From the NCBI GenBank assembly GCA_000004695.1, contig CM000154.2, positions 3,584,001-3,648,000 of the forward strand: a stretch of DNA of 64,000 nt, in the 5' to 3' direction. Position 1 is the stretch's first letter. The number at the start of each line of letters is the position of its first letter. The position numbers and the translations under genes were made by a program. The notes under the pieces are model-generated. The model saw only the letters and a list, made by a program, of their open reading frames with translations, searched no databases and was not told the origin of the DNA. Positions 11,858 to 62,805 of the stretch are shown here, piece by piece. The stretch is from Dictyostelium discoideum. Taxonomy: Eukaryota.

Positions 11858-14560
11858 TTATTTATTATTATTCAATTTATTCAATTTATTATTGATTGAC
11901 ATTTCGAATTTCTTTTGTTTTTTGCTTTTTGTGATAGCATAGACAGTAGCGATAACTATTACAGCAGCGAAAGCGATTGAACCAACAATAATACCAGCTA
12001 ATTGAGCAGTTGTTAAACCAGAATTATTTTTTGTACAAACTGAATCATCTTCATCAGAGGCTGATTTACTATCGATAAGTACTGAGAAATCTGGATCAAC
12101 AACTATTGAGTTTTTATAATTTGGAATTGTAATACCAATAAATGATTGTAATGATGATGATGAACTATCAATTACATTTAATGATGAATCTAATAAAACA
12201 TTGCTTATACTTTTAACAGTATTATCAATAATAGCACGTTTAATGAATCTACCGTAAAGTGAATGATTTTCAATTTGAATCTTTAAATAATTTGAATCAT
12301 CACCTGTTGATGTATTGCCAAATTGGTTTAATGTGCAAATATCATTTGAGTTTGTTGTTAATGATGCTGCCATTACTAATTGAAGTTGATTTAATGAACT
12401 TTTAAATTGATATTCTGTAATTTCAATTGTATATTTAATACTTGACGGATTCATTGTTAAATTTTGATTTGCAAATTGAATTGGAGTACTTTGATTAAAC
12501 CATTCTAAAGTTGCTGTTATATTTGTATTTGATACTGTTGTAAAGTATTGATTTTTAAATTCGTTAATTGGTGTATATATCCATTGATCGAATTTATAAT
12601 TATTTACTTCTTTATTATTAAAATCTAATTCTCTTAATGATACTAATGATATTAATGATTTAAATATCATTTTTTGAGATTCTTCACTATTTGTTTCTGA
12701 TGATTGACCAATATTATCTGTTGGTATTTCAACATTTGGGTTTGTTGTATTAATTGATGGTTGTGGTACAATAATAATTTGAGAAGTACAAGTTGTTCCA
12801 ATCCAAGGTGAATAACAGATACAACCTGTTGGTGAACAAAAACCTTGAGTTTTACCACCACATTCTGGATTACCAAGACATTTTTGTGGTGGGTTGGTTG
12901 GAATTGGTGTTGTTGTAGGTATTGGTGTTGTGGTTGGTGTTGTGGTTGTGGTTGGTGTTGGTGAAGGAGATTCAGTAGGTGTTGGTGGGATAGTTGCATT
13001 AAAATAAATTGGATTAACAGTATATATGTTTGATGTTAATGTATCACTTGTTGAAAATGTAATATCAAAAGGTTTATTAGTTGATTTAATTCCAGATATT
13101 TTAATTGCTGATGATTCATAAACTACTAAAGGTGGGAATGAATGAGGTGCTAATGTACCATCTCTATAAACAATATTAACTTGAATAACATTTGAAAAAC
13201 CTCTACCATATAGAACCAAATCATTATCATCTGAATAAAATCTATCAGTTGATTTAATAGTAGGTTGATTAAATGAGTATGTAGTATTTGCGTAATAACC
13301 AGAAGTAACTGTAGATAAATCCTTTGGAGTATAACCATAAAAGTAACCACCATTATTTACAATACCATATATTGAAAAAATCAATTGATTTGGATAACCA
13401 AAGCCAATTGGTAATTCTGTTGAACATTTATAAACAACCTCAACATTATTATATGATATTAATATTGTATCTCTACATTCAACTAAACCAGAAAATAATG
13501 AATTTATATAAACAATTGGTAATTGATCTTGTTTTATTGTAGATGTACTTGTACCAAATGAAAAATCAAATGAGATTGTTCTATTTGTTGCACCTACGTC
13601 AATGACTGATGTTGATGGTGTAAATGATAATAAGCTTGGTTTTGAATCTACTAATGTTGAATCTGAGCATTCAAATGGTACAATTGTAATATCAATACCT
13701 TTATTTAATAAATTGAGGAATGGATTAAGTATTGCTGCGTTTGCAAGTATAGGTGTATATAAATAAAATCTTGAAGCTATTTTATTTGTATCAAATAATA
13801 TAACCTTAATAATTCTATATTCTTGTGATATACATGGTTGAGTAATATTAATTAAAATTTGATATTGGCAATTGAATTTATCACCAATTACATCATCAAT
13901 TGTAAAATTGAAATGATAAGTTGAACTATCAATCGAACCCATTACTTTAATATAACCACTTTCAAACCCATTTAAATCATCTGTAATATTAAATCTCCAG
14001 CCAATTGTACCTGTTGTTGAAATTATTGAACCATTTCCAATTTTTTCAAATGAACTAAATAATGGACCTTGATTATCAAGTACTATAATTTACAATAACA
14101 AAAAATTAGTTTCTTTTTTTTTTATTATTAGATATATTAAAAAAATTATTATTAAAAAGGTAAAAACTTACTTGTATTATTTGCAATTAAAGGTTCAATT
14201 AATTCATTACTATGTATACCCAATAGATTTCCATAGAATACTGTATATAGAATTTTTCCAAACATATTATTCTTTGGTACAATGAATTTGCATTCATACT
14301 TTTTAGTTTGAGCATTGTATTTAAATGGAAGCTTAACAATCATTCCATCGGAATCACTACTATCTCTTTCAACTGGGAATGAAATAATATCAATTAATAA
14401 TAAAGATAATGATTTTTTAATTGGAACATAATCATTAAAATCAATATACATAATATTATAAGAATTATCTGTCAAATCTAAATTATTCTTTAAAAATGTT
14501 ATGTTAAAGTTTGTAATATTTAATACTAAAATTAAAAAATTAATAATTAATAAATGACAT

Positions 14561-21171: not shown

Positions 21172-21488
21172 TTAAAGGATTTTAATATGGGTTTTACCTA
21201 TATTGCACAAGGTTAATTTTCCTCTAACATCCATCATTTTGGTTTGAGTGCTGTGAGGTAAAATATCAAGTGTTTCTTGAATGTTGCCATTAAGATTTAA
21301 TTCACATCTTGCTAATTCATCTCCTTCATTTTCAAGAATAAATGTTGAAATTTCTTCACCTTTTGTTGGAACTATATAAAAAAAAAAAAAAAAAAAATGA
21401 AAAAAATAATTTAATATTTTTTTTTTTTTTTTAGAATCTTAAATAAATATTTACCAATGTAGTGACCTCCTGGTTTAATAATTGCCAT
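21172..21488 (-). CDS. small 2-exon gene, 78-aa protein of unknown function
   Basis: Exon 1 is 21488-21455 (ATG GCA ATT ATT AAA CCA GGA GGT CAC TAC ATT G|GTAAAT). The intron is 21454-21372 and ends TTTATATAG. Exon 2 is 21371-21172, in phase. It gives MAIIKPGGHYIVPTKGEEISTFILENEGDELARCELNLNGNIQETLDILPHSTQTKMMDVRGKLTLCNIGKTHIKIL*. Composition is non-low-complexity, unlike the surrounding DNA. The family was not recognised. Confidence 0.45.
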
Positions 21489-21574
21489 TTTTAGTTATTT
21501 GTTTTTAATAAATGAAATATATTGTAAAAATAAAAAAAAAAATTTTTAAGTTGGTATAAATAATAAAAAAAAAA

Positions 21575-21615
<41 letters not shown>

Positions 21616-21965
21616 TTTTTAGGAAAAAAAAAAAAAAAAAATCCTTATTTCTCAGTAACACAAAATATTTTTTTTAATTTTTGTTTTTGTTTTTATTTTT
21701 TACTTTTTATTTTTAATTAATTTTTATAAATTGGGGTGTGTGCTTTTAGTAAATAAAAAACCCCAAAAAAGGAAAAAATTTATTTTTTAAAAAAATGTTT
21801 TTCTTGGGAAGTTTATCAGGATACTTTAAAATATATAAAAATAAAAAATTATTAAAAAAAAAAAAAAAAAAAAAAAAATTTACCATTTATGAAAAAACAC
21901 TTGGGAACCTCTGATATTTTAACTTTTTTATTAAATGGATTTTTTTTTTTTTATTTGTTTACTAT

Positions 21966-23078
21966 TCAATAACCTATAATTTTTACATTTTTAGGAACAA
22001 AAGATTCAATTAATTTTTTACAACTTTTCAAAATATAGACATTGTTTAATGTATTAGGAATTGAACCAATCATCAAATCATGTTTTATACCACCAAAAAG
22101 TAACTCTTTAACACTTTCTGGTATTATACCTTTGGTTAATTTTTGATTGAATCCATCACATAAAGTAAGAGTTTTTACAGTATTAGGAATTGAATCAATT
22201 ATTAATTCTTGTTTTATATTACCTATTAACAACTCTTTAACACCTTCTGGTATTATACCTTTGGTTAATTTTTGATTGAATCCATCACATAAAGAAACAG
22301 TTGTTACAGTATTAGGAATTGAATCAATTATTAATTCTTGTTTTATATCACCCAAAACCAACACTTTAACACTTTCTGGTATTATACCTTTGGTTAATTT
22401 TTGATTGAATCCATTACATAAAGTAACAGTTGTTACAGTATTAGGAATTGAATCAATATTTAATTCTTGTTTTATATCACCTATATGTAACTCTTTAATA
22501 CCCACTGGTATTATACCTTTGGTTAATTTTTGATTGAATCCATTAAGAAGCATAACATTGTTTGGTAATTTTTTTACTTTTGATAAGATGTCACAATTGT
22601 CTTTGAATGCTAAACTTTCGAAATCTCCAGACAATATAGATGATTCATCATTCTCTGAATATATAAAAAAATCGTGATTCCATACTAAAAACAAAGAATT
22701 AGTTTTTTTTTTTTTTTTTTTTTTTTAGACTTTTTTATTTGGGTCTAACTTACTGTTGATGAATTTATTTTCATTGATTGAGTTATTTAAATTATTATTA
22801 TTATTATTATTATCAACAAAAGAGTATATTGATTTAAAACTATTTTTAATATTATTAATTGTGTGATTATCGAATTTTAAGATTTGATTATTATATTCTT
22901 TTAGTTTATTAAAATTATTGATATTATTATTATTATTTAATATTAATAATGATTGTTGATATTGTTTAATTAATTCAATAGTATATGTATCAATTTGATA
23001 GTCATCATCATCATCATTGTTGTCATTGTCTTGTTGATTATAAATTTGTGAAAAATGATTTAATTTATCAAAAATTGA

Positions 23079-23137
<59 letters not shown>

Positions 23138-23140
23138 TAC

Positions 23141-23171
<31 letters not shown>

Positions 23172-23651
23172 GTTTAAGATTATTGAAACTATTTTATCAT
23201 CATTGTCGATTGAAGAAGTTATAATTGTATTCACTAATATATTTTTATCTAAGTTTGTTGATAGTTGTCTTTCAATATCGAATTCAACTAATGAAAGTAT
23301 ATTGTGAATTTTTTTAAATTCATTTTTTAACAAATTATTATTATTATCATATTGTGATTGAATTTGTTTGAAAGTATCATTTGATTCTTTTAATAATATT
23401 TGATCATTTTCTTTTCTTTCAATTAATTTTGGATAAACGTTATTTTTAAAATCATTAATCAATGAATGAATATTTGATGCTGATGATTCTAATAAATCAG
23501 TTTTATGACCATGATGTTCACCTTTACGAGAAATACAAAGACTACAACATGGCATAAATTTACAATCCAAACATAAAAATTCTAAATTTTTATTTGAATG
23601 AAGTGTACATTTATTTTGATTATTTGTAATTATATCTTCACTTTCTATCAT
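21966..23651 (-). CDS. B-box zinc finger + coiled-coil + FNIP-repeat protein (intact copy A; 2 exons, 4 FNIP units of 43 aa)
   Basis: Exon 1 is 23651-22754: [52 protein letters not shown]... (C/H-rich B-box), followed by a coiled-coil and poly-N. The donor is CAACA|GTAAGT (phase 1). The intron is 22753-22685 and ends TTTTTAG. Exon 2 is 22684-21966 with four [29 protein letters not shown] units, the Dictyostelium FNIP repeat. The stop is included at 21966. Confidence 0.75.
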
Positions 23652-23700
23652 TTTATGTGCTGTTTTGGTTTGTTTAAAAAAAAAAAAAAAAAAAAAAAAT

Positions 23701-23720
23701 TTTGATAACTTAAAATTTTA
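23701..23720 (-). promoter_or_regulatory. conserved upstream motif TTTGATAACTTAAAATTTT ~50-70 bp 5' of the B-box gene ATG
   Basis: The same or a near-identical motif recurs upstream of other copies: 61230-61249 (plus a variant ATTTGATAATTTAATTTT at 61151-61168) for copy D, and 27008-27026 (TATGATAACTTAAATTTTT) abutting truncated copy C. It is diverged upstream of decayed copies B and E. Confidence 0.4.
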
Positions 23721-24007
23721 AAATAAAGAAAATAAAAAAAAAAATTAATCTTTTTATTTTGAATAAAAAACAAAAAAAAAGTTTATCAAATTATTATATT
23801 GGAAAAATGAAAAAAAAAAAAAAAAAATGAAAAAAAAAAAAAAAAAAATAATAAAATTAAAAAATATATAAAAAATAAATCTTAGTTGGAATTTTTTTTT
23901 TTTTTTCTTTAGTAATCAATTATTAAACAAAAAAAAAGTTTATCAAATTACTATTATATTGTTTTCCAATATTTAGATGAATAAATAAATAAATTTTTTC
24001 ATTAATC

Positions 24008-24160
24008 GATAAAGCAGGTTTAGCAAATGGAGTTTTATTTTTAATATTTTAGATGTATCATTATTAGCAATTTAGGAACAGCATCATTGCTTGATAAAGC
24101 AGGTTTGGCAAATGAAGTTTTATTTTTAAAATTTTTATGTGTATCATTATCGATATTGGG
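24008..24160. repeat. two diverged direct copies of a ~95-bp unit (GATAAAGCAGGTTT[A/G]GCAAATG[G/A]AGTTTTATTTTTAA...)
   Basis: Copy 1 is 24008-24064 and copy 2 is 24103-24160, with similar spacers. The region reads as a short hydrophobic-peptide ORF fragment and may be a relic. Confidence 0.5.
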
Positions 24161-24414
24161 ACTTGCAACATTGGGAACCAATGTTCAAGTTATCGATAAA
24201 GGTCAAATAGTAGAGAAAGAGAATCAAACTAAGTTTATTATTATTCAAAGATAGACCAATTCGATTACAAGTGGTACCATTACTTTATAGTGGTGTTTTT
24301 TTGGTGTATTCCCTCAACTACTTTGTAAAGAATGGATTGGTTATCGCTGTATGGTAGTTATATCGGTGGTGCTTCACTTGGGTAAAGGCAAACAAGCTGC
24401 AATGAATGTAAGTA

Positions 24415-24503
<89 letters not shown>
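24415..24503. repeat. (AAT)n microsatellite, ~29 units
   Basis: Perfect trinucleotide run seen directly in the sequence. Confidence 0.9.
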
Positions 24504-24504
<1 letters not shown>

Positions 24505-24910
24505 TAATAAATAATTATTTAAATAAATTAATAAATAAAAAAATAAAAAAGTAAATAAATAAATAAATAGTCCCTTTATTTTTGGAAATAATTGGTTTTT
24601 TTTTTTTTTTTTTTTTAGCGATGAAACTTTTTTTTTTTTCTTATGTTTTTTGGTCATTTAAACTACTATTATTTTGTTTATTAATTGTTGGAATAAATTT
24701 AACATAGGAAAAAACCTCGACACTCTAGAAATTTATTTATTTATTTATATATTTATTTATTATTATTTTTATTTGATTATTTACATTCTCTTGAAACTTA
24801 TTTAATTGTATCACGACAAGTCATTTCCAAACATTAAATAAAAAAAAAATAAAAAAAAAAAAAATTATAAACTCAAAAATTGGATTGGATAATACAAATT
24901 TTTTTCTTTT

Positions 24911-24935
24911 TATTATTATTATTATTATTATTATA

Positions 24936-25020
<85 letters not shown>
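24911..25020. repeat. (ATT)n microsatellite, ~36 units
   Basis: Perfect trinucleotide run with one ATA interruption. It causes three spurious overlapping ORFs in the track. Confidence 0.9.
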
Positions 25021-25021
<1 letters not shown>

Positions 25022-25149
25022 CATCTTTTTTTTTTATTCCCTTTGGGACTTTTTTCACTATCATGGGTATACCTATAGGGAAAAAAAGGGCTACAACAAT
25101 TCTCACAAAATAATTATGGTGTAGTAAAAATACAAAGATTTTTTTTATT

Positions 25150-25910
25150 TTTTTTTTATTTGTGCACTATTTTGACATTTTCTGGAACAAAGGGCCAATT
25201 AATTTTTTACAACTTTTATAAATATTGACATTGTTTAATGTATTGGGAATTGAATCAATCATCAAATCTTGTTTTATATCACCTATGTGCAAATCTTTAA
25301 TGTTATCAGGTATTGTAGCTGGTGTTAATTTTTGATTGAATCCATCACATAACCAAACAGTTGTTACAGTATTAGGAATTGAATCAATTATTAATTCTTG
25401 TTATATATCACCTATAAACAACTCTTTAACACCTTCTGGTATTATACCTTTGGTTAATTTTTGATTGAATCCATTTTGTTGATAGTTGTTTTTCAATATC
25501 CAATTCAACAAATGAAAGTATATTGTGAATTTTTTTAAATTCATTTTTTAATAAACTATTACAATTATCATTTTGTGATTGAATTTGTTTGAAAGTATCA
25601 TTTGATTGTTTTAATAATATTTGATCATTTTCTTTCAATTAATTTTGGATAAATATTATCTTTAAAATCATTAATTAATGAATATTTGATGCTGATGATT
25701 CTAATAAATCAGTTTTATGACCATGATGTTCACCTTTACGAGAAATACAAAGACTACAACATGGCATAAAACTGATTTATGCCATGTTGTAGTCTTTGTA
25801 TTTCTCCATGGAATAAATTTACAATCCAAACATAAAAATTCTAAATTTTTATTTGGATGTAGTGTACATTCATTTTTATTATTTGTAATTATATCTTCAC
25901 TTTCTATCAT
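25150..25910 (-). pseudogene. B-box/FNIP gene copy B: pseudogene with internal deletion and inverted duplication
   Basis: N-terminal B-box codons are present ([32 protein letters not shown]...) but interrupted at 25740-25806 by an inverted duplication. The coiled-coil segment ([23 protein letters not shown]...) is fused directly at ~25480 to decayed FNIP units (25160-25470). The exon-1 tail, the intron and the exon-2 head are missing, and the frame is broken. Confidence 0.65.
25740..25806. repeat. perfect 31-bp inverted repeat (hairpin) with 5-nt loop inside pseudogene B
   Basis: The left arm GAGAAATACAAAGACTACAACATGGCATAAA (25740-25770) is the exact reverse complement of 25776-25806; the spacer is ACTGA. 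The intact paralog (23525-23560) has only the left-arm sequence continuing ...CATAAATTTACAATCC. Confidence 0.9.
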
Positions 25911-26141
25911 TTTATGTGCTGATTTTGTTTGTTTTTAAAAAAAAAAAAAGAAAATATTTTGGACACCGAAATTTTTTTTTTCCTTTTTTTACTTTTTTAT
26001 TTTTTTTTTATTTAGATAATTAATTCAAAAATCATTCAATTTTTAAATCCAACAACAATAATAATAATAATAATATCATCACAAAATTTTTATTTTTTTT
26101 TTTTTTTATTTTTTTTTTATTTTTTTTTTTTTTTATTTTTT

Positions 26142-26997
26142 TTATATGTTTACTATTTTGACATTTTCAGGAACGAAGGGATTAATTATTTTTTTACAAC
26201 TTTTATAAATATGGACATTGCTTAATGTGTTAGGAATTGAATCAATAATTAAATCTTGTTTTATATCACCTATATGCAAATCTTTAATGGTATCAGGTAT
26301 TATACCTTTGGTTAGTTTTTGATTGAATCCATCACATAAAGTAACAGTTGTTACAGTATTAGGAATTGAACCGATTATTAATTCTTGTTTTATATCACCC
26401 AAATACAACACTTTAACACCTTCTGGTATAGTACCTTTGGTTAATTTTTGATTGAATCCATCCCATAAAGTAACAGCTGTTACAGTATTAGGAATTGAAT
26501 CAATTATTAATTCTTGTTTTATATTACCTAAACGTAACACTTTAACACTTTCTGGTATTATATCTTTGGTTAATTTTTGATTGAATCCATCCAAAAAGCC
26601 AACATTTGTTACAGTATTAGGAATTGAATCAATAATTAATTCTTGTTTTATATCACCTATACACAACTCTTNNNNNNNNNNNNNNNNNNNNNNNNNNNNN
26701 NNNNNNNNNNNNNNNNNNNNNNNNNNNNNNNNNNNNNNNNNNNNNNNNNNNNNNNNNNNNNNNNNNNNNNNTATCATTTTGTGATTGAATTTGTTTGAAA
26801 GTATCATTTGATTCTTTTAACAATATTTGATCATTTTCTTTTCTTTCAATTAATTTTAGATAAATATTTTTATTAAAATCATTAATTAATGAAAGAATAT
26901 TTGATTCTGATGATTCTAATGAATCAGTTTTATGACCATGATGTTCACCCTTACTGGAAATACAAAGACTGCAACACGGAATTAATTTACACTCCAA
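26142..26997 (-). pseudogene. B-box/FNIP gene copy C: 5'-truncated and interrupted by a scaffold gap (pseudogene or assembly casualty)
   Basis: FNIP units lie at 26142-26670. The B-box/coiled-coil part (26772-26997) starts mid-domain (..[24 protein letters not shown]..). The first ~35 codons ([15 protein letters not shown]) are absent, and the conserved upstream motif abuts at 27008. Confidence 0.5.
26672..26771. other. assembly gap, exactly 100 N
   Basis: The N run lies inside the FNIP/coiled-coil region of copy C. This is a conventional fixed-size scaffold gap placed in a tandem-repeat array. Confidence 0.95.
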
Positions 26998-27056
26998 ACA
27001 TAAAATTATGATAACTTAAATTTTTAAAAAAAAAAAAAGATAATCAAAATTCAAAT

Positions 27057-27091
<35 letters not shown>

Positions 27092-27236
27092 TTATAACTT
27101 TGTTTTTTATATTTAAATAAAAAATAAAAAATAAAAAATTTTTATTGCTTGGTGTCGTAAAAAAAAAATTGACCAGATATTTTTATTTTTTTTTTTTTCT
27201 TTTTTTTTTCTGGTTTTGAAAAAAAAAATTGACCAG

Positions 27237-27296
<60 letters not shown>

Positions 27297-27604
27297 AAAA
27301 ATAATTAATTTTATTAAAAAAATGAATGTAACCATCCTGTTTTGAATTTTTTTAAATCAAAAATTTTTATTTTTAAAATTTATATATTTACCAATTTTTT
27401 GAAATTGTTTTTTTTATTTAAAAATAATACAAACGGAAAAAATTTAAAAAATAAAATTGGAAACAAACCAAAATACGTTTCGCAGTCAAAAAAATAAAAT
27501 AAAATCAATTGAAAAAACTTTTTTTCACTTGCGACATTATAGTTGACCTATTAATACACTATTATTTTTTTTTTAAAAAAATTCCACACTCAAAAAAACA
27601 AATA

Positions 27605-28043
27605 ATGGACAGAAATAAAAATGAAATATTATTTTGGAAAATTTTTAGAAATTCATATTTAAATAAAATAATATTTGAAAAAATTAAATGTAAATGTAGA
27701 TTACTTTGTTATTCATATGATAAAATCTTTTTTTGTGAATGGATGATAATAAATAATTATTTAGAATTATTGAAATATAAAGTAAGAAGAGGTGATAAAT
27801 TAATATTTAATAATACATGGGTGAATGTATTCTATAATTATGAAAAATTAACTAGAACCCAACCAGAATCATTAAAACGTTCAAATTCAAGATTTAAATA
27901 CGATCAATTAGAAGATGATTATTCTTTAATTACTTCAAAAAAAGGAATTTATGAAGTTAATTCAATTTTTAATTGGTTTAAAGATGATTATGATTTTTAT
28001 TTAAATTTATTTAAAAATTATTCAAATTATTTTAAAGTTAATA

Positions 28044-28126
<83 letters not shown>

Positions 28127-30136
28127 GATTATGAAAATCAAGAAAATAATAAAATAAAAAAATTACGAATGTGTCAATCAGAAAGTAGAACGTCAGTTCA
28201 TCCATTATCATTAAAACAAATTATAAATCTTATAATTGTTTTTGATAATGTTTCTGCAATGAAAGTTTTAGTTGGACAAGGTTATTATATTAGAGATGAC
28301 GAACAAATTTTTAAAGATTTTATAAAATCATTTGAAATTGGTTCATTAAAATTAGCAGAATTTATTTATAATAATTATTTAAATTTAGAATTTACAAAAG
28401 AAAAAGAAAAGATTCAATCACTTTGGAATTTAGCTATTTTTACTGAAACAAACTTTATAGATATTCAAAAAGAAGATGGATTAGAATTATTTTTAAATAA
28501 ATTTTATTTAATGAAGAAATTAAAAAGCAACGACAACAACAATAATAATAATAAAATAATTTCAAATTGTGATAGTGAAATAATATTTAAAAATATTCAA
28601 TCAATATTAAGAATGAATATTTTTAAAATTAAATTTAATATTTTAATTGGTTATGCAGAAGTGATATCAATTTTAAATGATCAATTTGATTTTCAAAATA
28701 ATATAATTAAAAATTATAAAGCAAATACAAATAATAAAGATATTAATGAAAGTTTAGAAGAAGATAAAAATGAAATTTCAATTCTATCAATTAAAGAAAT
28801 TAATGAATTAAAATTAAAACTAATTGAAAAAAACATTATAAATGAAATTAAACCATTGAATCAAAATGATTGGAATTCATTAAAGCAAGATTTAGAAGGG
28901 CTATATAAAATGTTAATAATATTTACAGGTTTCTCAATTCCTGAAAATTATTTCATTTTTAAATTAAAATTTAATAAAATATTAAATTTTAAATCAATGA
29001 ATTTCATAACCAATAATCCAAATGATTACTTTTTATATAATTTAAAAGATGGTGGTAAACAGTTGATTTATAACCCAGTATTTTCAAATTATAAAAATGA
29101 AAAGATTCAAATAAAATCATTTTTAGAAAATTGTCTTTTAGATTTAAATTTAAGAGATGATAAATATCAATCAAATAATTTATTTTCATTAATTATTAGA
29201 GATAATCAAAATGATGATGATCATGAAATCATTGAATATGGTATAAATAATCTTTTATTTAAAGGTGAATTACCAATTGATTATAATTCATTTAAAAATA
29301 TAAAATCAATTAAAACATTTGATTTTATTTTTAAATCAATTCAATTAAAATATCCAAACAATCTTTCAACTAATTTATTATCCTCAATTATTGATAATTT
29401 CCAACTTGCCACTCATTTCAAAGAAAACTATCCAAATCAATATAAATCATCATTAAAAACAATTAAATTCAGTGATATTAGTGAATTTAAAAATTTTACT
29501 CAACTCAAATTTATAATTCACAATTGGTTAGATTTTAAAAATATAATCATAAAAAGTAAAGGTAAAAATTGGGCCCAAGATATTGTAAGGTATAAAAAAG
29601 AATTTAATATAAATGAATTTAAAACTTTTGTTTCATGTTTTGATAATCTTCAAAATACCGACACTAGAAATAATAACGATGTCAAAGAAGAAGATGATGA
29701 TGATAATGATGATAGTGATAATAAATCACTTTATTATGCAAATGATACAGAAGAATCATTTTATGTTTACCAAAATAGACCAGAACATTTAAAATCTGGT
29801 ATATGTGAACCTATCAGAATTGAATTCATGAACACCATTAATTACATTAATGGTAAGTTTGATTTCTCTTCTTTAAATTTTGAAAAAGAATCTAAATATG
29901 GTGACTTATTTAAACATATCGTTCAAAGATGTGATTTTAATGCTATTGATCAATGTATTTCAATTTTAGGTCAACCAAGCCAAGAGGAAATTGATCTGGA
30001 TTATAAAAATTTAGATGTCATCATACATATTCTATCTCGAGAAGCTTTTGAAAATGGAAATACTATTGTTTTCGATTATTTACAAAATAAAAGTAGTAAG
30101 GGCTTCATTGAAATAAATGATTGTTATCCTTGGTAA
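27605..30136 (+). CDS. large N-rich hypothetical protein (~843 aa), paralog of the 17688-20966 product
   Basis: The likely start is the internal ATG at 27605 in AAAATGG context (MDRNKNEILFWKIFRNSYLNKIIFEKIKCKC...). The track ORF starts upstream at 27509. The shared N-terminal motif marks it as a paralog of the minus-strand gene at 17.7-21 kb. It has poly-N and acidic tracts, and the stop is at 30134-30136. Confidence 0.6.
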
Positions 30137-30261
30137 ATAAAAGGTTTTATTTAAATATTAAAATAAAAAAAATAAAAAAAAAGTTTTTTATATTTGATTA
30201 CGTTTACTAATCATTTAGTAAATGTTTAAAGTTTTAGTTTATTATTTCTAAATATTTAGAT

Positions 30262-30345
30262 TATTATTATTATTTATTATTTATTATTTATTATTATTAT
30301 TATTTATTATTTATTATTTATTATTTATTATTTATTATTATTATT
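30262..30345. repeat. (ATTTATT)n heptanucleotide microsatellite
   Basis: Same unit as at 47302-47378. It lies immediately 3' of the stop of the zinc-finger gene. Confidence 0.8.
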
Positions 30346-30347
30346 TT

Positions 30348-32093
30348 TTATATTATTTGTTTATCAGATTGATCTTTACCACTGGTAATACCATATTTAA
30401 AACATCTTTTACAAAGTACACCATTGGTTAACATCATCCAAGGTCTTTGGCATTCTAAACATTGATGATTATTTGGTTGATATTTTTGAGTTCTACTTCT
30501 TGATAAACAAATTGAACAAAATTCTAAATTGACAGATTTTGTTTTTCTAGCTTTACCACTAATACACCATTTGGTGCAAATATTTGGCTCGGAGCCATCG
30601 GTATGAACTAATGCATAAGGTCTAACTTGTTGACAAGCTGAGCATTCTTGATTTTTTTCGGTGGCAATTGCACAATATGGTACACACCTGTTGGAAGGTA
30701 TTGAAGATGATGATAGTAAAATCGTATTGGCAGATGCTGATAGTAGAGTTGAAGATTTTTTTGATTTTTTAGTTGGAGTAGATGGTGCAGATGATTGAAG
30801 TGGATTTGATAAATTAGTATTATTATTATTATTGATTGATGATATAATTGGTGAAGATGATGATGAAGATGGTGATGTAATCGGATTATTAAATGCATTA
30901 GTTGCTAAATTTACTTGTTGTAAATAAATTGATGATGGTGGTTTAATTTGTATTGGTAAACTAGAAATGGTTGGAATGAATTGATTTTGAAATGGATTAC
31001 TATGAATTATTTGATGTTGTTGTTGTTGTTGTTGTAATGGTTGTTGAAGGAATTGTGGTTGTTGAATTGGTAATGGACTTTGTAATGGTGTTGAAATTGG
31101 TGAACTTACTACTGATGATGTTTCTGAATCATTTTCAATTTTAATTTCTTTTTTTTTTTTTTTTTTTTTAGAAAATAAAAAAATAAAAAATTAATAAATT
31201 ATAAAATAAAACTAATAAAATATAAATTTATAATATATACTTTTTGAATCTCTATCATCAATTTCATGTTCTAATTTTAATTGAGTATTATGATTTGATA
31301 AATCATCAAAGTTTGTATTTGTTAAATCTAAGCTTGTATCAACTAACATACTATCCAATTTGAAATTATTATCTTCATCATCTAAATCATCGTCATCATT
31401 ATTTAAAAAGTTTTTAGTGATTTGAATTTCAAGTTGTTCTTGAGTTACTGCTGTAACTGTAGCTAAATCTTTTGCATCTAACAATTGCTTAGATTGGTCT
31501 GCTGCTGCTCCTGTTGCCCCTCCTCCTAATAGGGTGCTATCATGTTCTTGTGGTGTTGAAGCTGATGATGTTGTCAATGAAGTTTTAATTGATGGCGATA
31601 ATGGTAATGATTGTGGTGGTGGTTGTGTTATTTGTAATTGTGGTTGTGATTGTGATTGTGATTGTGATTGTGATTGTGATTGTGATTGTGATTGTGATAA
31701 GTTTACATTATATACATTAAATTTGGGAATAATGATATGAATTGGATCCATATCATTTAGTAATTCAAATACATTACAAGTTTCGGATAAATCGTTATTT
31801 AAACGATCTTGTAATTTACAACGTTCAAAATTTTGTGGATGTAATGGATTTGAAGTTGCTATATTAGTTTTAAATAAACCATTGAATTCATTAAAAATTC
31901 TAATCTTTAAATTTTTAATTACAATTTGATTTGGTGAGAAAATAATAAATTCTAAACCACCAGATACAACTCTTAATCTATAAACAGAGTTTATTGATGA
32001 TGGTGTTGATATTGATGATGTTGGTGTTGTTGAAGAAGAAGAGGGAGAAGAATAAATATTATTATTATTATAATTATTATTATTATTATTATA

Positions 32094-32183
<90 letters not shown>

Positions 32184-32508
32184 GTTGGTGGTGGCGGTCG
32201 TTATTGGTGAAGATGTAGATTTTATTGGTGTTATTATGCTTGTGTTTAATAAATTACCACTTGTAAATGCATTAAATGGTGCTTGCATTAAACTAAAATC
32301 ATTAAATTCATTTGTAAAATCAATGGTTACATGGTTTAATTGTTGTCTTTGTTGTTGTAAAATTGTTGGTGTTATTAAAAAAGGTGATGGAAATGGTACA
32401 GTTTGATTCTCTTTTTCAGATTTATCAATATTATTATTATTATTTGTAGTGTTACTATTATTTACAGGGGTTTCTATAGAATTATTTTTATTATTGTCAT
32501 TATTTTTA

Positions 32509-32550
<42 letters not shown>

Positions 32551-32921
32551 GTATTATCATTGGTAATGGTACTATTTGAGCTTGTTAAATTATCATTTGG
32601 TGAAGTGATTGTATTTGATAAATCACTTGAAAGATAAATATCATCATTTTCATTGTTTGTTGAGTGTGTGATAGATGAATTTTGATCATTTATATTATTA
32701 CATTCATTTTTTTTATTTTCATTTTTATTTTGATCATTTTCATTATTGTCATTATTGATACTACTATTTTCGCAATTTTGTTGTGATTCTTGAGTATCAT
32801 CTAATAATAATTTACCATCCTCACTATTTGCAACTAAAATATGTTCATCATGAAGTTGATGAATATCTTGATCATTTACAATATTACATGTAATATCAGA
32901 AAAAACAAAATGATCAATCAT
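30348..32921 (-). CDS. low-complexity nuclear-type protein with C-terminal FCS/MYM-like Cys-rich zinc-finger module (2 exons)
   Basis: Exon 1 is 32921-31241 (569-aa ORF minus its tail: poly-N, poly-NNY and an (SQ)11 tract from (TCACAA)n at ~31625-31700). The donor is A|GTATAT at 31240. The intron is 31240-31148 and ends in A21+G. Exon 2 is 31147-30348 and joins in phase (split codon AAA). It encodes ...SIPSNRCVPYCAIATEKNQECSACQQVRPYALVHTDGSEPNICTKWCISGKARKTKSVNLEFCSICLSRSRTQKYQPNNHQCLECQRPWMMLTNGVLCKRCFKYG...*. The EFCSICLSR element resembles the FCSxxC core of FCS/MYM/FLZ-type fingers. ORF 30608-30898 in the track is a spurious antisense-frame read of this exon. Confidence 0.55.
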
Positions 32922-33119
32922 ATTTATTTTATTTTATTTTATTTTATTTTATTTATTATAAATTACTAATTATTTTTTAATGATGTTTAATTCCAAGTGG
33001 AAAAATAAATAAAAAAAATAAAAATATAAAAAATAAAAAAACAAATAAAATAAAAGAGAAAAGAAAAAAAATTAAATAATAATAATTTTGTTTTTGTTTT
33101 TGTTTTTGTTTTTGTTTTT

Positions 33120-33153
<34 letters not shown>

Positions 33154-33249
33154 TGATTACTGATATTATTGTTATTATTGTGTTTTTATATTACAACTGT
33201 TATTTTATTATTTATTCAATTATATATATTTATAAGGTTTATTTATAGT

Positions 33250-33320
33250 ACAAAATATGAGTGTGTGTGTGTTTGTGTTTGTGTATGTGTGGTTGGAGTA
33301 ATTATGGTGGTAGTGGGTTG
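33250..33320. promoter_or_regulatory. G/T-rich (G-box-like) island upstream of the minus-strand zinc-finger gene
   Basis: GAGTGTGTGTGTGTTTGTGTTTGTGTATGTGTGGTTGGAG...GGTGGTAGTGGGTTG lies ~330 bp 5' of ATG 32921. It is a GC/GT island in an otherwise >85% AT intergenic region. Confidence 0.35.
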
Positions 33321-33951
33321 AAATTGAATATTAGTGAAGAGTGTGTTGTTAAATAAAAATTTTTTTTAAAAAAAAAAAACTTTATATTTTTTTTTTTTTA
33401 TTTATTTAATTTATTTATTTATTTATTTATTTTTTTATTTTATTTTTTTTATTTTTGGGGGGTGTGTAGTGTTTGGTTATGGGATGGAAAATTTTAAAAA
33501 AAAGTTGGAATTGAAATATCTAAATTTGAACAGTTTTTATTAAACAAATTTTTTTGTGATTTATTTTTATTTTTATTTTTTTTTATTTTTTTTATTTTTT
33601 TTTTTATTATTATTTACAATATTGAATAGAAATACAAAAAAGATATGAAGGTGATAAAGGTGTGATCCAAACAGTGTTATAGCTGTGCGGAGGTGTGCAG
33701 ATGAAAAGTGTTTTGTTTTGGAGTTTATGACCAAAAAACACAACCAAAGCAGATGCTAAAAAAAGGTAATGAAAAAAATAAAAAATAAAAAAAATAAAAA
33801 AAATAAAAAAAATAAAAAAATAAAAAAAAAAAAAAAATAAAAATAAAAAAATAAAAATAAAAAAAAAAAATGATCAAGGGGCACTAAAAAAAATAAAAAA
33901 AAAAAAAAAATTTTTATAATAATCTAAGTCTGCACAAAAAAAAATAAAAAA

Positions 33952-34028
<77 letters not shown>

Positions 34029-34471
34029 TTTAAAATTTTTTTAAGGGGGTTTAAAAAAACTTACACCCCCTCCCAAATCAGATTGCTAGCTGATCGTGAT
34101 TCAATCCATGTGAAAATAATATTTTGAAATTTAAAAAAAAAAAAATTAAAATTTAAAAATTAAAAAATTTAAAAAAAAAAAAAACCAAAAAGGCAAAAAA
34201 CAATTGAATTTAATTTAATTTATATGTTTATGTGCTTATTGGTTGGAGTAAAGTTGATTATTAAGCCATATTTTAATTATTAAAGAATGATGGCTTCTAT
34301 CAAAGTGTCAACAAGGGTTTTTTTTATCCTTTTTTATATAAATAAATGGATGAATTTTGTTTTATGTGAATAATAAATTAATAAAAAGAATTGGAATATT
34401 TTATTTAACTTTATAAGTTTGATTTAAATCGGTTCCACAATTTTTTATTATAAAATTAATTTATTGGGGTT

Positions 34472-34512
<41 letters not shown>

Positions 34513-34709
34513 CAAAAAGAGTAACCCGGTGAAGGGGTCTCTTTTACAATAAAAACTATAATTAATATGAAAAAAAATTCAAATTGGAAAAAAAAAAAAA
34601 AAAATTAAAAAAAAAATTTTAAAAAAAAAAAGATATTTTTTAAAAAACATTTTATTAAAATTTTTTTTTTTACCACCCAACAATGTTCTATTTTGGGAGT
34701 AATCATTTT

Positions 34710-34926
34710 TTAGGAGTGCTTGTAACAACAAATTGTCACATTATCGCATGGTATTTTAAAACTTTGGCACTTACTTTCAACAACGCTTAACTAATTATTA
34801 TAATAATTAAAATAATATTTAAAATAAAAAAAATTAAAAAAAAAAAGTAAAAAAATAAAATATCTTTTATTAGTACAACCTTCTTTTAGATATTTATTTT
34901 TTTTTTTTTTTTTAAAGCGTTTTGGG

Positions 34927-34977
<51 letters not shown>

Positions 34978-36743
34978 CCAATAAAATAAATAATGAAAAC
35001 TTACCAATAAATCTGTTAATTCTTTTACAGAAGTTGATTTCTTAATATACTTGCAGCATGCTTTGAAATCCAAAACATTCCAAAGACCATCAGAAGCGAC
35101 AATGACATAATCACCGGGGTTCAATGATTCACTTTGAAATTCTGGTGTACTACTAACTCCATATTTACTTAAAACTACATGACCTAATGCTCTACTCATA
35201 TTTAATGCTAATCTTTGTTTCATAATGTCATCATTACTATAATCATTTTTATTTGGTATAACTCTATAACATCCCTATATATATAAATTTATATAATTAA
35301 TAATTATTAATTATTATATTTATTTTTAATGTTTTTAATTATTAATTTAAAATATACATACACATCTAAAAACTACTCTACCACCAGTTGTAATTATTCT
35401 TTTTTTTTCGAGTGGATTTTCAGGTTTATGATCATTTGATAGTTGAATTGGAGTATAATCTTTACCATTTGCAGATTGTTTAAATAAAACTGCCATTGAA
35501 TCACCTACCCAACCAACACGAATATGGTTATCCTTAATTATTGCCAATGTTGCGGTTGTACCCCAATCACCAGTAATTTTACCTTTTTCAAGCAATGCTT
35601 CATTTGCTTCTAAAAATGAACTCGTTATACATTTATCTATAAAAAAAAAAAAAAAAAAAAAATTAAAAAAACAAAATAAAACATTTAAAAAAAAAATATA
35701 TATTAATAAAAATTTAATAATTATTTATTTTAATTTATATTTTACTCACCATAAAAATCATCAGATTTTTTATTATCATTACTATTTACAATTTCTTTTT
35801 CTACAATTTTTGATATAATATCTCTGGTTGTAGCAGATGCATCCATACCCTCATCACCATGGCCATCAAATACACCTATTACCCTTATCCCTTCAGATTT
35901 AAAATTTTTTTGAAAAAAAGTATCTTGATTTTCATCTCTTGTACCAAGTACTGTATTACCACTATAATTTAAATCTAAAATTTCTTCTTCTTCTTTTTGT
36001 TGTTGTTGTTGTTCCTCTTCTTTACTATGTTTTTCCTCTTCTTTTTCATTTTCTTCTAATTTCACGTCTTTTTCCTCATCTTTATTATTGTTGGTACTAG
36101 TTGTTGTTGTTGTAGTTGTAGTGGTTGTAGGGGTTGGGGTTGTGGTTGTAGGGGTTGGTGAATCCAGTGGTGGTGGATTAAGAACAAATTTAGACATTGA
36201 TTGAATGTCCATTGGTTGTTTCTCTATATTGTTAGGATTATCATTTAAAATATTGGAATCTTCCAAATCTTTGAAAACTACATCTTTTGGATGTTTTTGT
36301 TGTTTTTTATGTTTTTGATGTTTTTGTTGTTTTTTTTGTTTTTTATTATTAAAATCTTTAAGTGTTAATTCTGGTACATTTAATAATGTATCAATATTTT
36401 CATTACTATTGTTATTATTATTTGAGTCCATGACTGTATTTTTGTTACTATTTTCATTGTTGGTGTTTGTTGTTTTAAATTCATCAAGACTTGGTAATTT
36501 ATAATTACTATCGTCTTCATCAACATTATCAAGTTGTAATCTTTCTCTTTTGTTTTTAGGTGGTGATGTTGATTTTGTTGGTGTTGTAGTTGTAGACGAA
36601 GATGGTGAAGAGGATGATGTTGTGGTTGTGGTTGTTGTTGTTGTTGTTTTTTTAACAGGACTCTTTTTAATAATAAATTTTAAGTAGTTATCTGATATCC
36701 ATGATATTTCATAACCACTATCATTTGCAACTGCAGTATCCAT
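34710..36743 (-). CDS. PP2C-family Ser/Thr protein phosphatase with long PT/acidic N-terminal extension (4 exons)
   Basis: Exon 1 is 36743-35750 (..RVIGVFDGHGDEGMD.. metal-binding motif; donor G|GTGAGT, phase 1). Exon 2 is 35636-35362 (GTTATLAIIKDNHIRVGWVGDSMAVL...DHKPENPLEKKRIITTGG; alternative donor at 35376). Exon 3 is 35274-35005 (..RLALNMSRALGH..VIVASDGLWNV..; donor TTG|GTAAGT). Exon 4 is 34790-34710 (LSVVESKCQSFKIPCDNVTICCYKHS*). All junctions are phase-consistent. The long poly-T/A run at 34921-34975 is intronic. Confidence 0.7.
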
Positions 36744-36769
36744 TTTTTAATTTGTGATGTGTTTCAAGT

Positions 36770-36995
36770 TGTTGTTGTTGTTTTGGTTTGTTATTGTTTT
36801 TGGTTTTGTAGTTAATTTTATTTTATGTGTAGGTGGGTGAGTTTGGGTTTGTGTATAATTTTTTTAATTTTTTTTTTTAATTGTTTTTTTTATTTTTTTT
36901 TTTATTTATTTTATTAATTTAATAAGTGGGTTGTATTATTTATATATATAAATGGTGGATTTGTGTGTGTGTGTGTGTGTGTGTTTGTGTGTTGT
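36770..36995. promoter_or_regulatory. G/T-rich island incl. (TG)13 microsatellite upstream of PP2C gene
   Basis: GTTGTTGTTGTTGTTTTGGTTTG...GTGTAGGTGGGTGAGTTTGGGTTTGTGT...(TG)13 at 36962-36992. It lies directly 5' of ATG 36743 on the coding strand's upstream side. Confidence 0.35.
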
Positions 36996-37660: not shown

Positions 37661-37692
<32 letters not shown>

Positions 37693-38050
37693 AATTTTTT
37701 AACAAATAAACAAATAAATAAATAAATAAATAAAAAAAATTATAAAAAAAAAATAAAAAAAAAGTTTTGATTAAGTTCAAAATAGTAAAATAATGATAAT
37801 AATTATTATTATTACTATTTTGTTTGATTGAGTGTTATATAACTCAAATGTGGAAACCATAAACAAAAATAGCTACCCATGTTTTATTAGAAAATCAGCT
37901 CCTTTCAATAATTATTTTTATTTTTTTTATTTTTTTTTTGATTTTTTAAAAAAAGTTTTTTTTATTTTTTTTTTTTAAAATTTTTTTTTTTTATTTTTTA
38001 TTTTTTTTTATATTTTCCACCCCATTTTTAAACAAATATTTTATAATATA

Positions 38051-38479: not shown

Positions 38480-38484
38480 AAAAG

Positions 38485-38526
<42 letters not shown>

Positions 38527-39536: not shown

Positions 39537-39539
39537 AAA

Positions 39540-58811: not shown

Positions 58812-60272
58812 TTATATGTTTACTATTTTGACATTTACAGGGACGAAAGAATAAATTAATTTTTTACAACTTTTATAAATATAGACATTATTTAATGTAT
58901 TAGGAATTGAATCAATAATTAATTCTTGTTTTATATCACCTATATGTAACTCTTTAACCCATTCTGGTATTATACCTTTGGTTAATTTTTGATTGAATCC
59001 ATCTAATAACCTAACAGTTGTTACAGTATTAGGAATTGAATCGATTATTAGTTCTTGTTTTATATCATCTATATACAACTCTTTAACACTTTCTGGTATT
59101 ATACCTTTGGTTAATTTTTGATTGAATCCATCTAATAACCTAACAGTTGTTACAGTATTAGGAATTGAATCGATTATTAATTCTTGTTTTATATCACCTA
59201 AACATAACCCTTTAACCCATTCTGGTATTATACCTTTGGTTAATTTTTGATTGAATCCATCACATAAAATAACAGTTGTTACAGTATTAGGAATTGAATC
59301 AATTATTAATTCTTGTTTTATATCTCTTATATACAACTCTTTAACACCTTCTGGTATTATACCTTTGGTTAATTTTTGATTGAATCCATCACATAACCTA
59401 ACAGTTGTTACAGTATTAGGAATTGAATCAATAATTAATTCTTGTTTTAAATTACCTATATACAACTCTTTAACACCTTCTGGTATTATACCTTTGGTTA
59501 ATTTTTGATTGAATCCATCACATAAAGTAATAGTTGTTACAGTATTAGGAATTGAATCAATAATTAGTTCTTGTTTTATATTACCTATATGTAACTCTTT
59601 AACACTTTCTGGTATAATACCTTTGGTTAATTTTTGATTGAATCCATCTAATAACCTAACACGTGTTACAGTATTAGGAATTGAATCAATTATTAATTCT
59701 TGTTTTATATCACCTATATACAACACTTTAACACCTTCTGGTATTATACCTTTGGTTAATTTTTGATTGAATCCATCACATAAAATAACAGTTGTTAGAG
59801 TACTAGGAATTGAATCAATTATTAATTCTTGTTTTATATCACCTAAACGTAACTCTTTAACACCTTCTGGTATTATACCTTTGGTTAATTTTTGATTGAA
59901 TCCATACCATAAACCAACGGTTGTTACAGTATTAGGAATTGAATCAATTATTAATTCTTGTTTTATATCACCTATATACAACACTTTAACACCTTCTGGT
60001 ATTATACCTTTGGTTAATTTTTGATTGAATCCACTTAGAAGCAAAACGTTGTTTGGTAATTTCTTTAGTTTTGATAAAATGTTACAATTGTCTTTGAATG
60101 CTAAACTTTCAAAATCATCAGTCAAAAAGGATGATTCATCACTCTCTGAATATATATAAAAATTGTGATTCAATACTAAAAACAAAGAATTAGTATTTTT
60201 TGTTTTATTAGACTTATTAATTTGAGTCTAACTTACTTTTAATGAATTCATTTTTATTATTTGAGTTATTTA

Positions 60273-60329
<57 letters not shown>

Positions 60330-61107
60330 TATAATCAATAGCATCATTAGGAATATCACCAAAAGAGTATATCGATTTAAAACTATTTTTAATATTATTA
60401 ATTGTTTGATTATCGAATTTTAAGATTTGATTATTATATTCTTTTAGTTTTGTTAAATTATTGATATTATTGCTATTTTTTAATATTAATAATGAGTTTT
60501 GATATTGTTTAATTAATTCAATAGTATCTGTATCAATTTGATAGCAATCATCATTGTCGTCATTATCTTGTTGATTATTAATTTGTGTAAAATAATTTAA
60601 TTTATCAATAATTGAATTATTATTATTATTTAAAATTGTTGAAATGATTTTATTATCATTGTTGATTGAAGAAGTTATAATTGTATTTATCAATATATTT
60701 TGATCTAAGTTTGTTGATAGTTGTTTTTCGATATCCAATTCAACAAATGAAAGTATATTGTGAATTTGTTTAAATTCATTTTTTAATAAATTATTATTAT
60801 CATCATTTTGTGATTGAATTTCTTTGAAAGTTTCATTTGATTCTTTTAATAATATTTGATCATTTTCTTTTCTTTCAATTAATTTTGGATAGATATTATC
60901 TTTAAAATCATTAATTAATGAATGAATATTTGATGCTGATGATTCTAATGAATCAGTTTTATGACCATGATGTTCACCTTTACGAGACGTACAAAGACTG
61001 CAACATGGCATAAATTTACAATCCAAACATAAAAATTCTAAATTTTTATTTGGATGAAGTGTACACCTATTTTGATTATTTATAATTATATCTTCACTTT
61101 CTTTCAT
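58812..61107 (-). CDS. B-box zinc finger + coiled-coil + FNIP-repeat protein (intact copy D; 2 exons, 9 FNIP units of 43 aa)
   Basis: Exon 1 is 61107-60237 ([52 protein letters not shown]..; donor AAAA|GTAAGT, phase 1). The intron is 60236-60176 and ends TTTTTAG. Exon 2 is 60175-58812 with nine near-identical 129-bp units encoding [43 protein letters not shown]. The splice phase is identical to copy A. Confidence 0.75.

Positions 61108-61344: not shown

Positions 61345-62805
<1,461 letters not shown>

Follow-up and report, generated by a model that had tools for sequence, protein, structure and literature searches.

Genomic setting and cluster layout

The window analysed here is a 64-kb stretch of Dictyostelium discoideum chromosome 5, one ORF of which is an exact match to SigG. 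We compared it with chromosome 5 of GCA_054883475.1, a gap-free, independent, long-read, de novo assembly (PMC12745789) made from a different isolate or lab strain than that of the window, and found 99.3–99.98% identity; coordinates in this second assembly are quoted as L003. The genome has an A+T content of 78%.

We are highly confident that cluster 1 consists of B-box/FNIP-repeat genes arranged in tandem, some of the copies broken. Its true span is ~9 kb, with two intact genes (A and C') and two or three apparently dead fragments (B, F and G). Cluster 2 consists of intact gene D and putative pseudogene E. At a distance of 340 kb there is a further tandem cluster, whose four members have widely differing unit numbers. 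The encoded proteins consist, in order, of a B-box2 zinc finger, a long predicted helix of coiled-coil type, a poly-Asn linker and an FNIP/LRR array, the last built from units of 129 nt (43 aa) at a spacing of exactly 129 nt and numbering four in A, eight in C' and nine in D. Head domains are 91–98% identical between copies, and intron position and phase are common to A, D (60236–60176) and C' (L003 5999–5940).

Intact gene A has the following structure:

23703..23713, minus strand: promoter-core motif TTAAGTTATCA, followed by a T-run, a leader and the ATG ~50 nt downstream
22754..23651, minus strand: exon 1, encoding the B-box, long helix and poly-Asn linker, with a zf-B_box (PF00643) match
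22685..22753, minus strand: intron of 69 nt, GTAAGT...TTTTTAG, phase 1
21966..22684, minus strand: exon 2, with the exon-2 head, four 129-nt FNIP units and the stop codon

The spliced ORF encodes 538 aa, in agreement with the initial annotation of an intact copy with a perfectly phased intron, and the second assembly likewise has a 538-aa gene call at this position. The spacer between A and B was examined for a gene remnant and this candidate was rejected, the sole feature found being a local tandem duplication of ~66 nt.

Domain architecture and family membership

Family membership was assessed against the Pfam cutoffs for FNIP (PF05725, 21 bits) and zf-B_box (PF00643, 24.1 bits). PF05725 scores exceeded the cutoff in A (139.5 bits, E=3.6e-41), C' (303.4 bits, E=2.2e-92, eight FNIP stretches), D (350.3 bits) and F (75.2 bits), while the B-box profile was above its cutoff in A (28.3 bits) and D (29.5 bits) and below it in C' (22.0 bits). 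Zinc ligands C15, H18, C27, C30, C36, C39, H46 and H49 are invariant among the 19 members compared. No RING finger was matched by Pfam, and only 14 residues precede the B-box.

FNIP (IP22) repeats are a subclass of LRRs with the consensus hxxhxhxxxFNxxhxxxIPxx, for which structures of Crov588/Crov539 have been solved and which are hugely expanded in Dictyostelium, with 557 sequences (PMC9525666). The C-terminal arrays at this locus match PF05725 at E values of 1e-41 to 1e-107 and the 22-residue periodicity is legible in each unit, but they differ from the family at large in having a fixed 43-aa double repeat (22 + 21 residues) whose second half has lost the FN. The double-Phe spine signature of the FGxxFN LRR subfamily (Huyton et al. 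2022) is absent from the units, which read L-C-D-G-F-N: the first Phe is a Leu (LCDGFNQ), and the first Phe/Gly pair is replaced.

In an AlphaFold2 model of the copy A head, the B-box is followed by a helix over residues 54–159 (~105 residues; pLDDT 88). A fold search with this head gave weak matches (E about 0.01), the best being the B-box/coiled-coil modules of TRIM5alpha and KAP1, with TRIM5alpha as top PDB match (E about 0.012, TM 0.43). TRIM5alpha combines a B-box2, an antiparallel coiled coil and a C-terminal recognition domain. The likeness to TRIM/RBCC proteins extends to the eight conserved B-box2-type zinc ligands, the predicted ~105-residue helix that follows them, a variable C-terminal repeat domain and an arrangement in tandem, fast-turnover gene clusters; the differences are that the amoebal proteins have no RING and carry FNIP-LRRs in place of SPRY/B30.2.

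The B-box/FNIP architecture is already on record in protein databases, and the Dictyostelium FNIP expansion is documented. DDB_G0289849, DDB_G0289777 and DDB_G0290101, also on chromosome 5, have the same domain order, and DDB_G0289849 is likewise one of four family members clustered in tandem. These genes nevertheless belong to another subfamily (53–57% identity between copy A and DDB_G0289849) and their flanks are not syntenic; synteny with the DDB_G0289849 cluster was rejected on the basis of 0 matching flanking ORFs.

Copy B and its lesions

Copy B was resolved by three-frame translation and a lesion map, which identified at least six lesions:

25156..25910, minus strand: copy B, putative unprocessed pseudogene, from ATG to vestigial stop
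25771..25817, minus strand: lesion 1, 47-nt insertion between zinc ligands C30 and C36
25635..25684, minus strand: lesions 2 and 3, a 4-nt deletion (between 25684 and 25683) and a 5-nt deletion (between 25636 and 25635)
25474..25475, minus strand: lesion 4, out-of-frame junction of exon-1 codon ~133 with the start of an FNIP unit
25401..25403, minus strand: lesion 5, TAA nonsense codon within an FNIP unit
between 25197 and 25196, minus strand: lesion 6, 1-nt deletion

The 47-nt insert of lesion 1 is an exact reverse complement of the adjoining 31 nt and forms a perfect hairpin, its two 31-nt arms (25740–25770 and 25776–25806) being 100% complementary, a perfect inverted duplication. The hairpin loop matches a 16-mer at 25704–25719 in inverted orientation. 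Reverse complementarity to the flank with microhomology at the switch points is the signature of template switching, which we take as the probable origin of the insert. Quasi-palindrome and other short template-switch mutations have reportedly been treated in Ripley-type strand-switch models and by Loytynoja and Goldman in 2017. The B insert resembles them in that it reverse-complements its neighbour and its loop appears to be copied from a nearby 16-mer, and differs in that at least two switches would be required. Lesions 2 and 3 each drop one unit of a short tandem repeat. Lesion 4 removes the linker, intron, exon-2 head and several FNIP units, and its junction shows AAAT microhomology, provided that the ancestor was C'-like.

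These lesions agree with the initial description of B as an internally deleted pseudogene, with some changes of detail. The inverted duplication does interrupt the first B-box codons, but after 33 codons and not ~28; the intron and the head of the FNIP exon are indeed gone, but the part of exon 1 beyond the duplication was not lost entirely, about 100 codons being kept after the insertion (~133 in total).

The assembly gap and gene C'

Two stretches of the window that the initial annotation had read as one truncated copy, copy C, flank a run of 100 Ns:

26142..26671, minus strand: 3' end of gene C', with the last ~4 FNIP units and stop (full extent L003 4705–7140)
26672..26771, no strand: 100-N placeholder, corresponding to 3,952 bp (L003 5235–9186)
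26772..27005, minus strand: fragment G, with head-domain codons ~25–101 visible in the window
27006..27019, minus strand: G junction, promoter core TTAAGTTATCA fused to codon ~25

L003 1–5234 corresponds to window 21437–26671 and L003 9187–22532 to window 26772–40189; since these blocks match both gap flanks, 3,952 bp are left unaccounted for between them. In L003 this sequence comprises the bulk of C' and the distal part of G, together with fragment F and a spacer bearing a hairpin. C' is intact, encodes ~791 aa and has the conserved intron position of the family. Copy C is thus a composite of an intact gene and a separate fragment, which arose because the reference assembly breaks in repeats and spans ~4 kb with 100 Ns.

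Because the comparison assembly comes from another strain, the gap content of the window's own strain is read across from L003, and we infer that it is the same. In that case the gapped reference at 26672–26771 would hide intact C' (~791 aa), fragments F and G and a hairpin repeat, and any annotation, expression mapping or pseudogene call that joins both flanks as one gene would be wrong. The practical value of the analysis lies in this correction of the gapped reference.

Fragments F and G and the promoter motif

Fragment F, located between C' and G, consists of exon 2 only, keeps the 3' part of the intron and carries a frameshift. It is separated from G by the hairpin-bearing repeated spacer, which has the CCATATTAATTTCAGCAGCC hairpin repeat. 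In L003, fragment G reaches about codon 165, beyond which come poly-Asn and a stop codon. The ATG, zinc ligands C15 and H18 and any FNIP part are missing from G, which gave no Pfam match, B-box included. Upstream of G, TTAAGTTATCA at 27009–27019 abuts mid-B-box codons at 27005–27008, as had been noticed initially, and the promoter-to-codon-25 junction is identical in the long-read assembly. A deletion of ~120 bp between AATTTT microhomologies accounts for this arrangement, having removed the T-run, leader, ATG and 24 codons, fewer than the ~35 first reported missing.

The exact 11-mer TTAAGTTATCA occurs three times in the 64 kb, where 0.32 would be expected, and all three sites lie upstream of family members; when one mismatch is tolerated, the 12 occurrences do not exceed chance (8.1 expected). 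Variant cores in the same layout precede C', an intact gene, and the L001 paralogues at 305 and 10001, while the upstream regions of the other two of the four L001 paralogues show no such layout. We rejected the motif as an independently conserved cis-element, this being unsupported with the exact 11-mer confined to paralogous promoter DNA.

Copies D and E

Cluster 2 contains one intact and one broken member:

58812..61107, minus strand: copy D, intact, 744 aa, nine FNIP units, intron 60236–60176
61347..62754, minus strand: copy E, putative pseudogene, verified in the second assembly over 61347–61900

A 744-aa gene is called for D in the second assembly, where its DNA is identical. Copy E has two 1-nt deletions (between 62698 and 62697 and between 62387 and 62386), both read from the window's assembly and both in homopolymer runs, together with an in-frame 15-nt loss, an internal loss of ~50 codons and a 3' truncation after 2.5 units.

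Alternative explanations

The arrangement was initially read as a graded series within 5 kb, of intact A, internally deleted B and a 5'-truncated but single gene C with a small gap. From the window alone this has some support: each half of C reads open in the family frame, and the two are ordered and oriented as expected of one gene. However, the 3,952 bp between the halves hold the ATG, B-box and intron of the complete gene to which the FNIP array belongs, and a further fragment, and even one gene would fill about 900 bp or more of the gap rather than 100, so that we regard a single-gene C as very improbable. Even more improbable, in our estimate, is that B, the G junction or both are assembly artefacts, that is, chimeric joins or hairpins from collapsed near-identical repeats. 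Repeats are abundant in the region, the assembly does break in it, and hairpin-shaped inserts can come from library preparation, but B with every lesion and the G junction recur in the independent long-read assembly (PMC12745789). Copy B is base-identical there, lesions included, and in the 5.2 kb containing it the two assemblies differ only in poly-A lengths and four intergenic substitutions. Moreover, the 231-nt segment common to B and G has 20 differences among 222 aligned sites, so that the two are not pieces of one gene, and the B deletion junction shares ≤4 nt, which is too short for a k-mer misjoin. The proposal that long reads might expose B and C as chimeras therefore holds for C, an assembly composite, and fails for B. 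A structural polymorphism, in which the window's strain would lack F or the hairpin spacer or have another number of C' units, is improbable, if less so: 129-nt units in tandem readily change in number and the assemblies differ by about 0.1–0.7% in the flanks, but on either side the match to L003 continues to the very edge of the gap and the contigs end in repeats, as a simple assembly break predicts.

We consider B, G, F and E to be probably dead, each lying in a genomic duplication and disabled by lesions when set against the intact copies, as in unprocessed pseudogenes. Gene models do exist for B (149 aa), F (133 aa), G (169 aa) and E (347 aa) in the automated annotation of the second assembly, so the designation rests on lesions relative to the intact paralogues. 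That some fragments are alive, expressed as shortened proteins with the head or the LRRs alone or as transcripts that modulate the intact paralogues (for example, through coiled-coil heterodimers), is unlikely. Such a role would fit the predicted gene models, the high identity of head domains among copies and a G frame uninterrupted for ~190 codons, with no internal frameshift; against it, G is without an in-frame ATG, T-run, leader and two invariant zinc ligands, B has six disabling lesions and F is frameshifted.

Evolution of the array

Turnover in cluster 1 is textbook birth-and-death in an already known family. Dead members are routine in tandem families. The initial annotation of a tandem family with intact and decayed members under such turnover holds, but its three-step series within 5 kb does not, given a composite third member and a span of ~9 kb. 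A simple duplication tree or series of copies is also rejected because the similarity is mosaic: over codons 25–99 B has 97.6% identity to A, yet it has AATTGTAATAGT in common with C', which its terminal unit also resembles more (88.6%) than it does A (83.4%). This patchy sharing of variants in short segments suggests gene conversion.

We propose that the array would evolve by duplication, unequal exchange within unit arrays and gene conversion between neighbours, and that single copies may die by ordinary replication and repair errors. The events in B could have been a template switch that left the inverted duplication, slippage behind the 4- and 5-nt deletions and a deletion at microhomology, besides the nonsense codon and the loss of 1 nt; in G, the ~120-bp microhomology deletion would have taken the transcription and translation starts and two zinc ligands. 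The locus would then be a small catalogue of mechanisms (template switching, slippage and microhomology deletion). No tRNA genes that would point to TRE retroelement targeting were present.

A more speculative reading, which we consider rather unlikely, is that the B-box/coiled-coil/FNIP-LRR genes form a RING-less, TRIM-like recognition family of social amoebae, with LRR strand x positions (unit positions 14, 17, 19, 38, 40 and 42) diversified by selection. New specificities could come from unit shuffling and gene conversion in tandem arrays, and pseudogene fragments and hairpin-bearing spacers could serve as sequence donors or recombination substrates. If true, the family would be an amoebal analogue of fast-evolving TRIM or LRR immune and self-recognition clusters. 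A pN/pS of 2.57 at variable FNIP positions was discarded as evidence of selection because it is circular, the sites having been picked for being variable. There is a weak hint that the variable positions are those on the LRR surface.

A B-box/FNIP gene family in two clusters

Self-comparison of the window, which has a G+C content of ~20%, identified five related segments, all on the minus strand: A, B and "C" in cluster 1 and D and E in cluster 2.

Related segments by self-comparison of the window
21966-23651, minus: segment A
about 25139-25961, minus: segment B
26104-27005, minus: segment "C", including the window's only N run (26672-26771)
58812-61107, minus: segment D
61347-62754, minus: segment E

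The copy A product contains a B-box (PF00643, 28.3 bits) and FNIP repeats (PF05725, E=3.6e-41); no RING domain was found in the B-box/FNIP product. All 19 family members in the alignment share the same eight Cys/His zinc ligands, and for residues 1-160 AlphaFold2 (pLDDT 88) predicts the B-box followed by a single ~105-residue helix, for which the best PDB matches are the B-box/coiled-coil modules of TRIM5alpha and KAP1, with weak E-values (~0.01). FNIP repeats form a subclass of LRRs whose structure has been characterised and which has expanded greatly in Dictyostelium (PMC9525666), and another tandem cluster of four members lies around DDB_G0289849, 340 kb from the window's cluster, so both the architecture and the clustering are already on record.

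A second assembly fills the gap in cluster 1

The ORF at 48189-49463 (minus) exactly matches D. discoideum AX4 DDB_G0290071, SigG, and three stretches of the newer chromosome-scale D. discoideum assembly GCA_054883475.1 (CM142511.1, 5.29 Mb) are 99.3-99.98% identical to the window. These matches place the window on D. discoideum chromosome 5, most likely in the gapped reference version. The newer assembly is one of a set of "gapless contig" genomes built de novo from long reads (Holland et al. 2025, PMC12745789). Elsewhere in the window, the neighbouring minus-strand ORFs 4988-7045 (685 aa) and 11858-13942 (694 aa) form a tandem duplicate pair with an identical ComC-like domain set (DUF7035, DUF7034, DUF7949 and ComC_SSD).

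Gap content was read on the sense strand from L003, the gap-free stretch of the second assembly covering cluster 1. L003 1-5234 corresponds to window 21437-26671 and L003 9187-22532 to window 26772-40189, which puts 3,952 bp in place of the 100 Ns. The initial annotation had read 26142-26997, across this gap, as one 5'-truncated gene, "copy C", closing a series of intact A, deleted B and truncated C. That reading fails on the gene order within the 3,952 bp, which runs G, spacer, F, C': the FNIP array is the tail of an intact gene, C', and the truncated B-box is part of a separate fragment, G.

L003 7140 (ATG) to L003 4705 (stop, = window 26142), minus: C', complete gene with eight FNIP units

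G, a 5'-truncated head, runs on from window 26772 to ~codon 165 and ends in a poly-Asn tract and a stop, without an intron or FNIP part. A spacer of ~550 bp with a hairpin (DNA fold z = -11.9) separates it from F, an exon-2-only fragment with two FNIP units and one frameshift, starting inside the 3' portion of the family intron. The C' intron (L003 5999-5940) is at the family's conserved position, and the gene encodes 791 aa in our model versus 781 aa in the deposited annotation. The 231-nt segment common to B and G has 222 aligned sites, 20 of them different, which excludes the two as pieces of one gene.

The G-F hairpin (L003 8377-8484, inside the N gap) has 39-nt arms that are 97% complementary, with CCATATTAATTTCAGCAGCC-type repeats. 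Spacers of the cluster 340 kb away (L001 4194-4551 and 9585-9652) carry it too, matching perfectly over 55 nt but in inverted orientation with respect to the genes; candidate explanations are a mobile element, a foldback element or a spacer prone to recombination.

Copy A is intact and copy B is a genuine pseudogene

Copy A had been described as intact with a phased intron, and its spliced ORF of 538 aa bears this out; the second assembly has a 538-aa gene called at this position, and the product spliced from there is identical.

23651-22754, minus: copy A exon 1, 898 nt
22753-22685, minus: copy A intron, 69 nt, GTAAGT...TTTTTAG, phase 1
22684-21966, minus: copy A exon 2, completing the spliced ORF

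The 1.5-kb A-B spacer contains a ~66-nt tandem duplication (23999-24064 / 24084-24150; 87% identity, 85-nt period), and a diverged local repeat (23676-23801 / 23822-23961) has AAAAAAAAGTTTATCAAATTA in both copies.

Copy B is indeed an internally deleted pseudogene with an inverted duplication, but the rest of exon 1 is not all lost, as homology resumes to ~codon 133, and the ATG (25910) and 33 codons, not ~28, precede the insertion.

25771-25817, minus: 47-nt insertion, reverse complement of the adjoining 31 nt
25684/25683, minus: 4-nt slippage deletion
25636/25635, minus: 5-nt slippage deletion
25475/25474, minus: out-of-frame junction, coil fused to the start of a FNIP unit
25401-25403, minus: TAA in the next FNIP unit
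25197/25196, minus: 1-nt deletion

The insertion makes a perfect hairpin (arms 25740-25770 / 25776-25806) whose loop copies a 16-mer at 25704-25719, a signature from which we infer a probable strand-switch replication error. Lost at the out-of-frame junction are the poly-Asn linker, intron, exon-2 head and several FNIP units. An artefact is ruled out because every base of copy B is the same in the second assembly; over 5.2 kb, the two assemblies differ only in the length of two poly-A tracts and by four substitutions between genes.

A promoter motif abuts the truncated B-box of G

The initial annotation placed a promoter motif directly against mid-B-box codons; the junction is real, but 24 codons are lost rather than about 35. 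In G, the motif TTAAGTTATCA (27009-27019) runs straight into TAATTTTATGTTTGG, equivalent to codons ~25-28. Relative to A, ~120 bp are absent between two AATTTT stretches, taking the T-run, leader, ATG and 24 codons, including zinc ligands C15 and H18. Because homology to the A upstream region extends past the motif, the junction reflects an internal deletion in a resident copy.

The exact 11-mer TTAAGTTATCA lies upstream of A, G and D, three occurrences in the window versus 0.32 expected, but the sequences that carry it are paralogous. At the same position intact C' has AGTGGACAAAA and B has GGTGTCCAAAA, while two of the four paralogues in the distant cluster have other cores in the same layout (A/T box, core, T-run, leader, ATG). 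The 11-mer is best read, from these alignments, as belonging to a core-promoter segment that the family shares in several variants, and it need not be a specific cis-element. Copy D has two promoter-like modules ~80 nt apart (61154-61164 and 61231-61278), the distal one 92% identical over 49 nt to the copy A promoter (23700-23748); the distal module may stem from a local duplication or be what remains of a copy once present between E and D.

Cluster 2 and relations among copies

Cluster 2 repeats the cluster 1 pattern, with intact D beside pseudogene E. D encodes 744 aa, is also called at 744 aa in the second assembly and is identical there in DNA. Copy E (61347-62754), a pseudogene that the initial annotation did not mention, has lost 15 nt in frame near the N-terminus and ~50 codons internally, is truncated at the 3' end after 2.5 FNIP units and has two frame-disrupting sites, both in homopolymer runs as read in the window assembly.

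62698/62697, minus: copy E 1-nt deletion
62387/62386, minus: copy E 1-nt deletion

A clean series of copies is rejected, as similarity is patchy. Over codons 25-99, identity is 97.6% for A-B and 96.3% for D-E, and G is 88-92% identical to all others; over codons 100-133, AATTGTAATAGT is common to B and C', and the terminal unit of B is 88.6% identical to C' versus only 83.4% to A. This patchy sharing, together with FNIP unit counts of 4, 8 and 9 at an exact 129-nt spacing in the intact genes, points to probable gene conversion and unequal exchange. The birth-and-death turnover proposed for the locus is real, but one third of the proposed series was the product of an assembly gap; such turnover is ordinary here, in a known family, and the useful product is a corrected locus map.

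Variation among FNIP units

Among 18 internal units of 43 aa from the intact genes, the variable amino-acid positions are mostly 14, 17, 19, 38, 40 and 42, the exposed x residues of hxxhxhxx LRR-type strands.

Window 21966-22541: units of A
Window 58812-60032: units of D
L003 4705-5800: units of C'

The pN/pS of 2.57 at these positions is circular, the sites having been picked for variability, and the overall pN/pS is 0.79. The pattern gives only a hint that the family may serve as a variable recognition module. Outside the window, the annotated FNIP protein DDB_G0290101 has an internal stretch of ~170 residues (…RCRLCSTAEESIEHLVSDC…) that bears no relation to FNIP repeats and that we take to resemble a retroelement ORF fragment; if so, either a mobile element has interrupted a family member or the gene model is a fusion.
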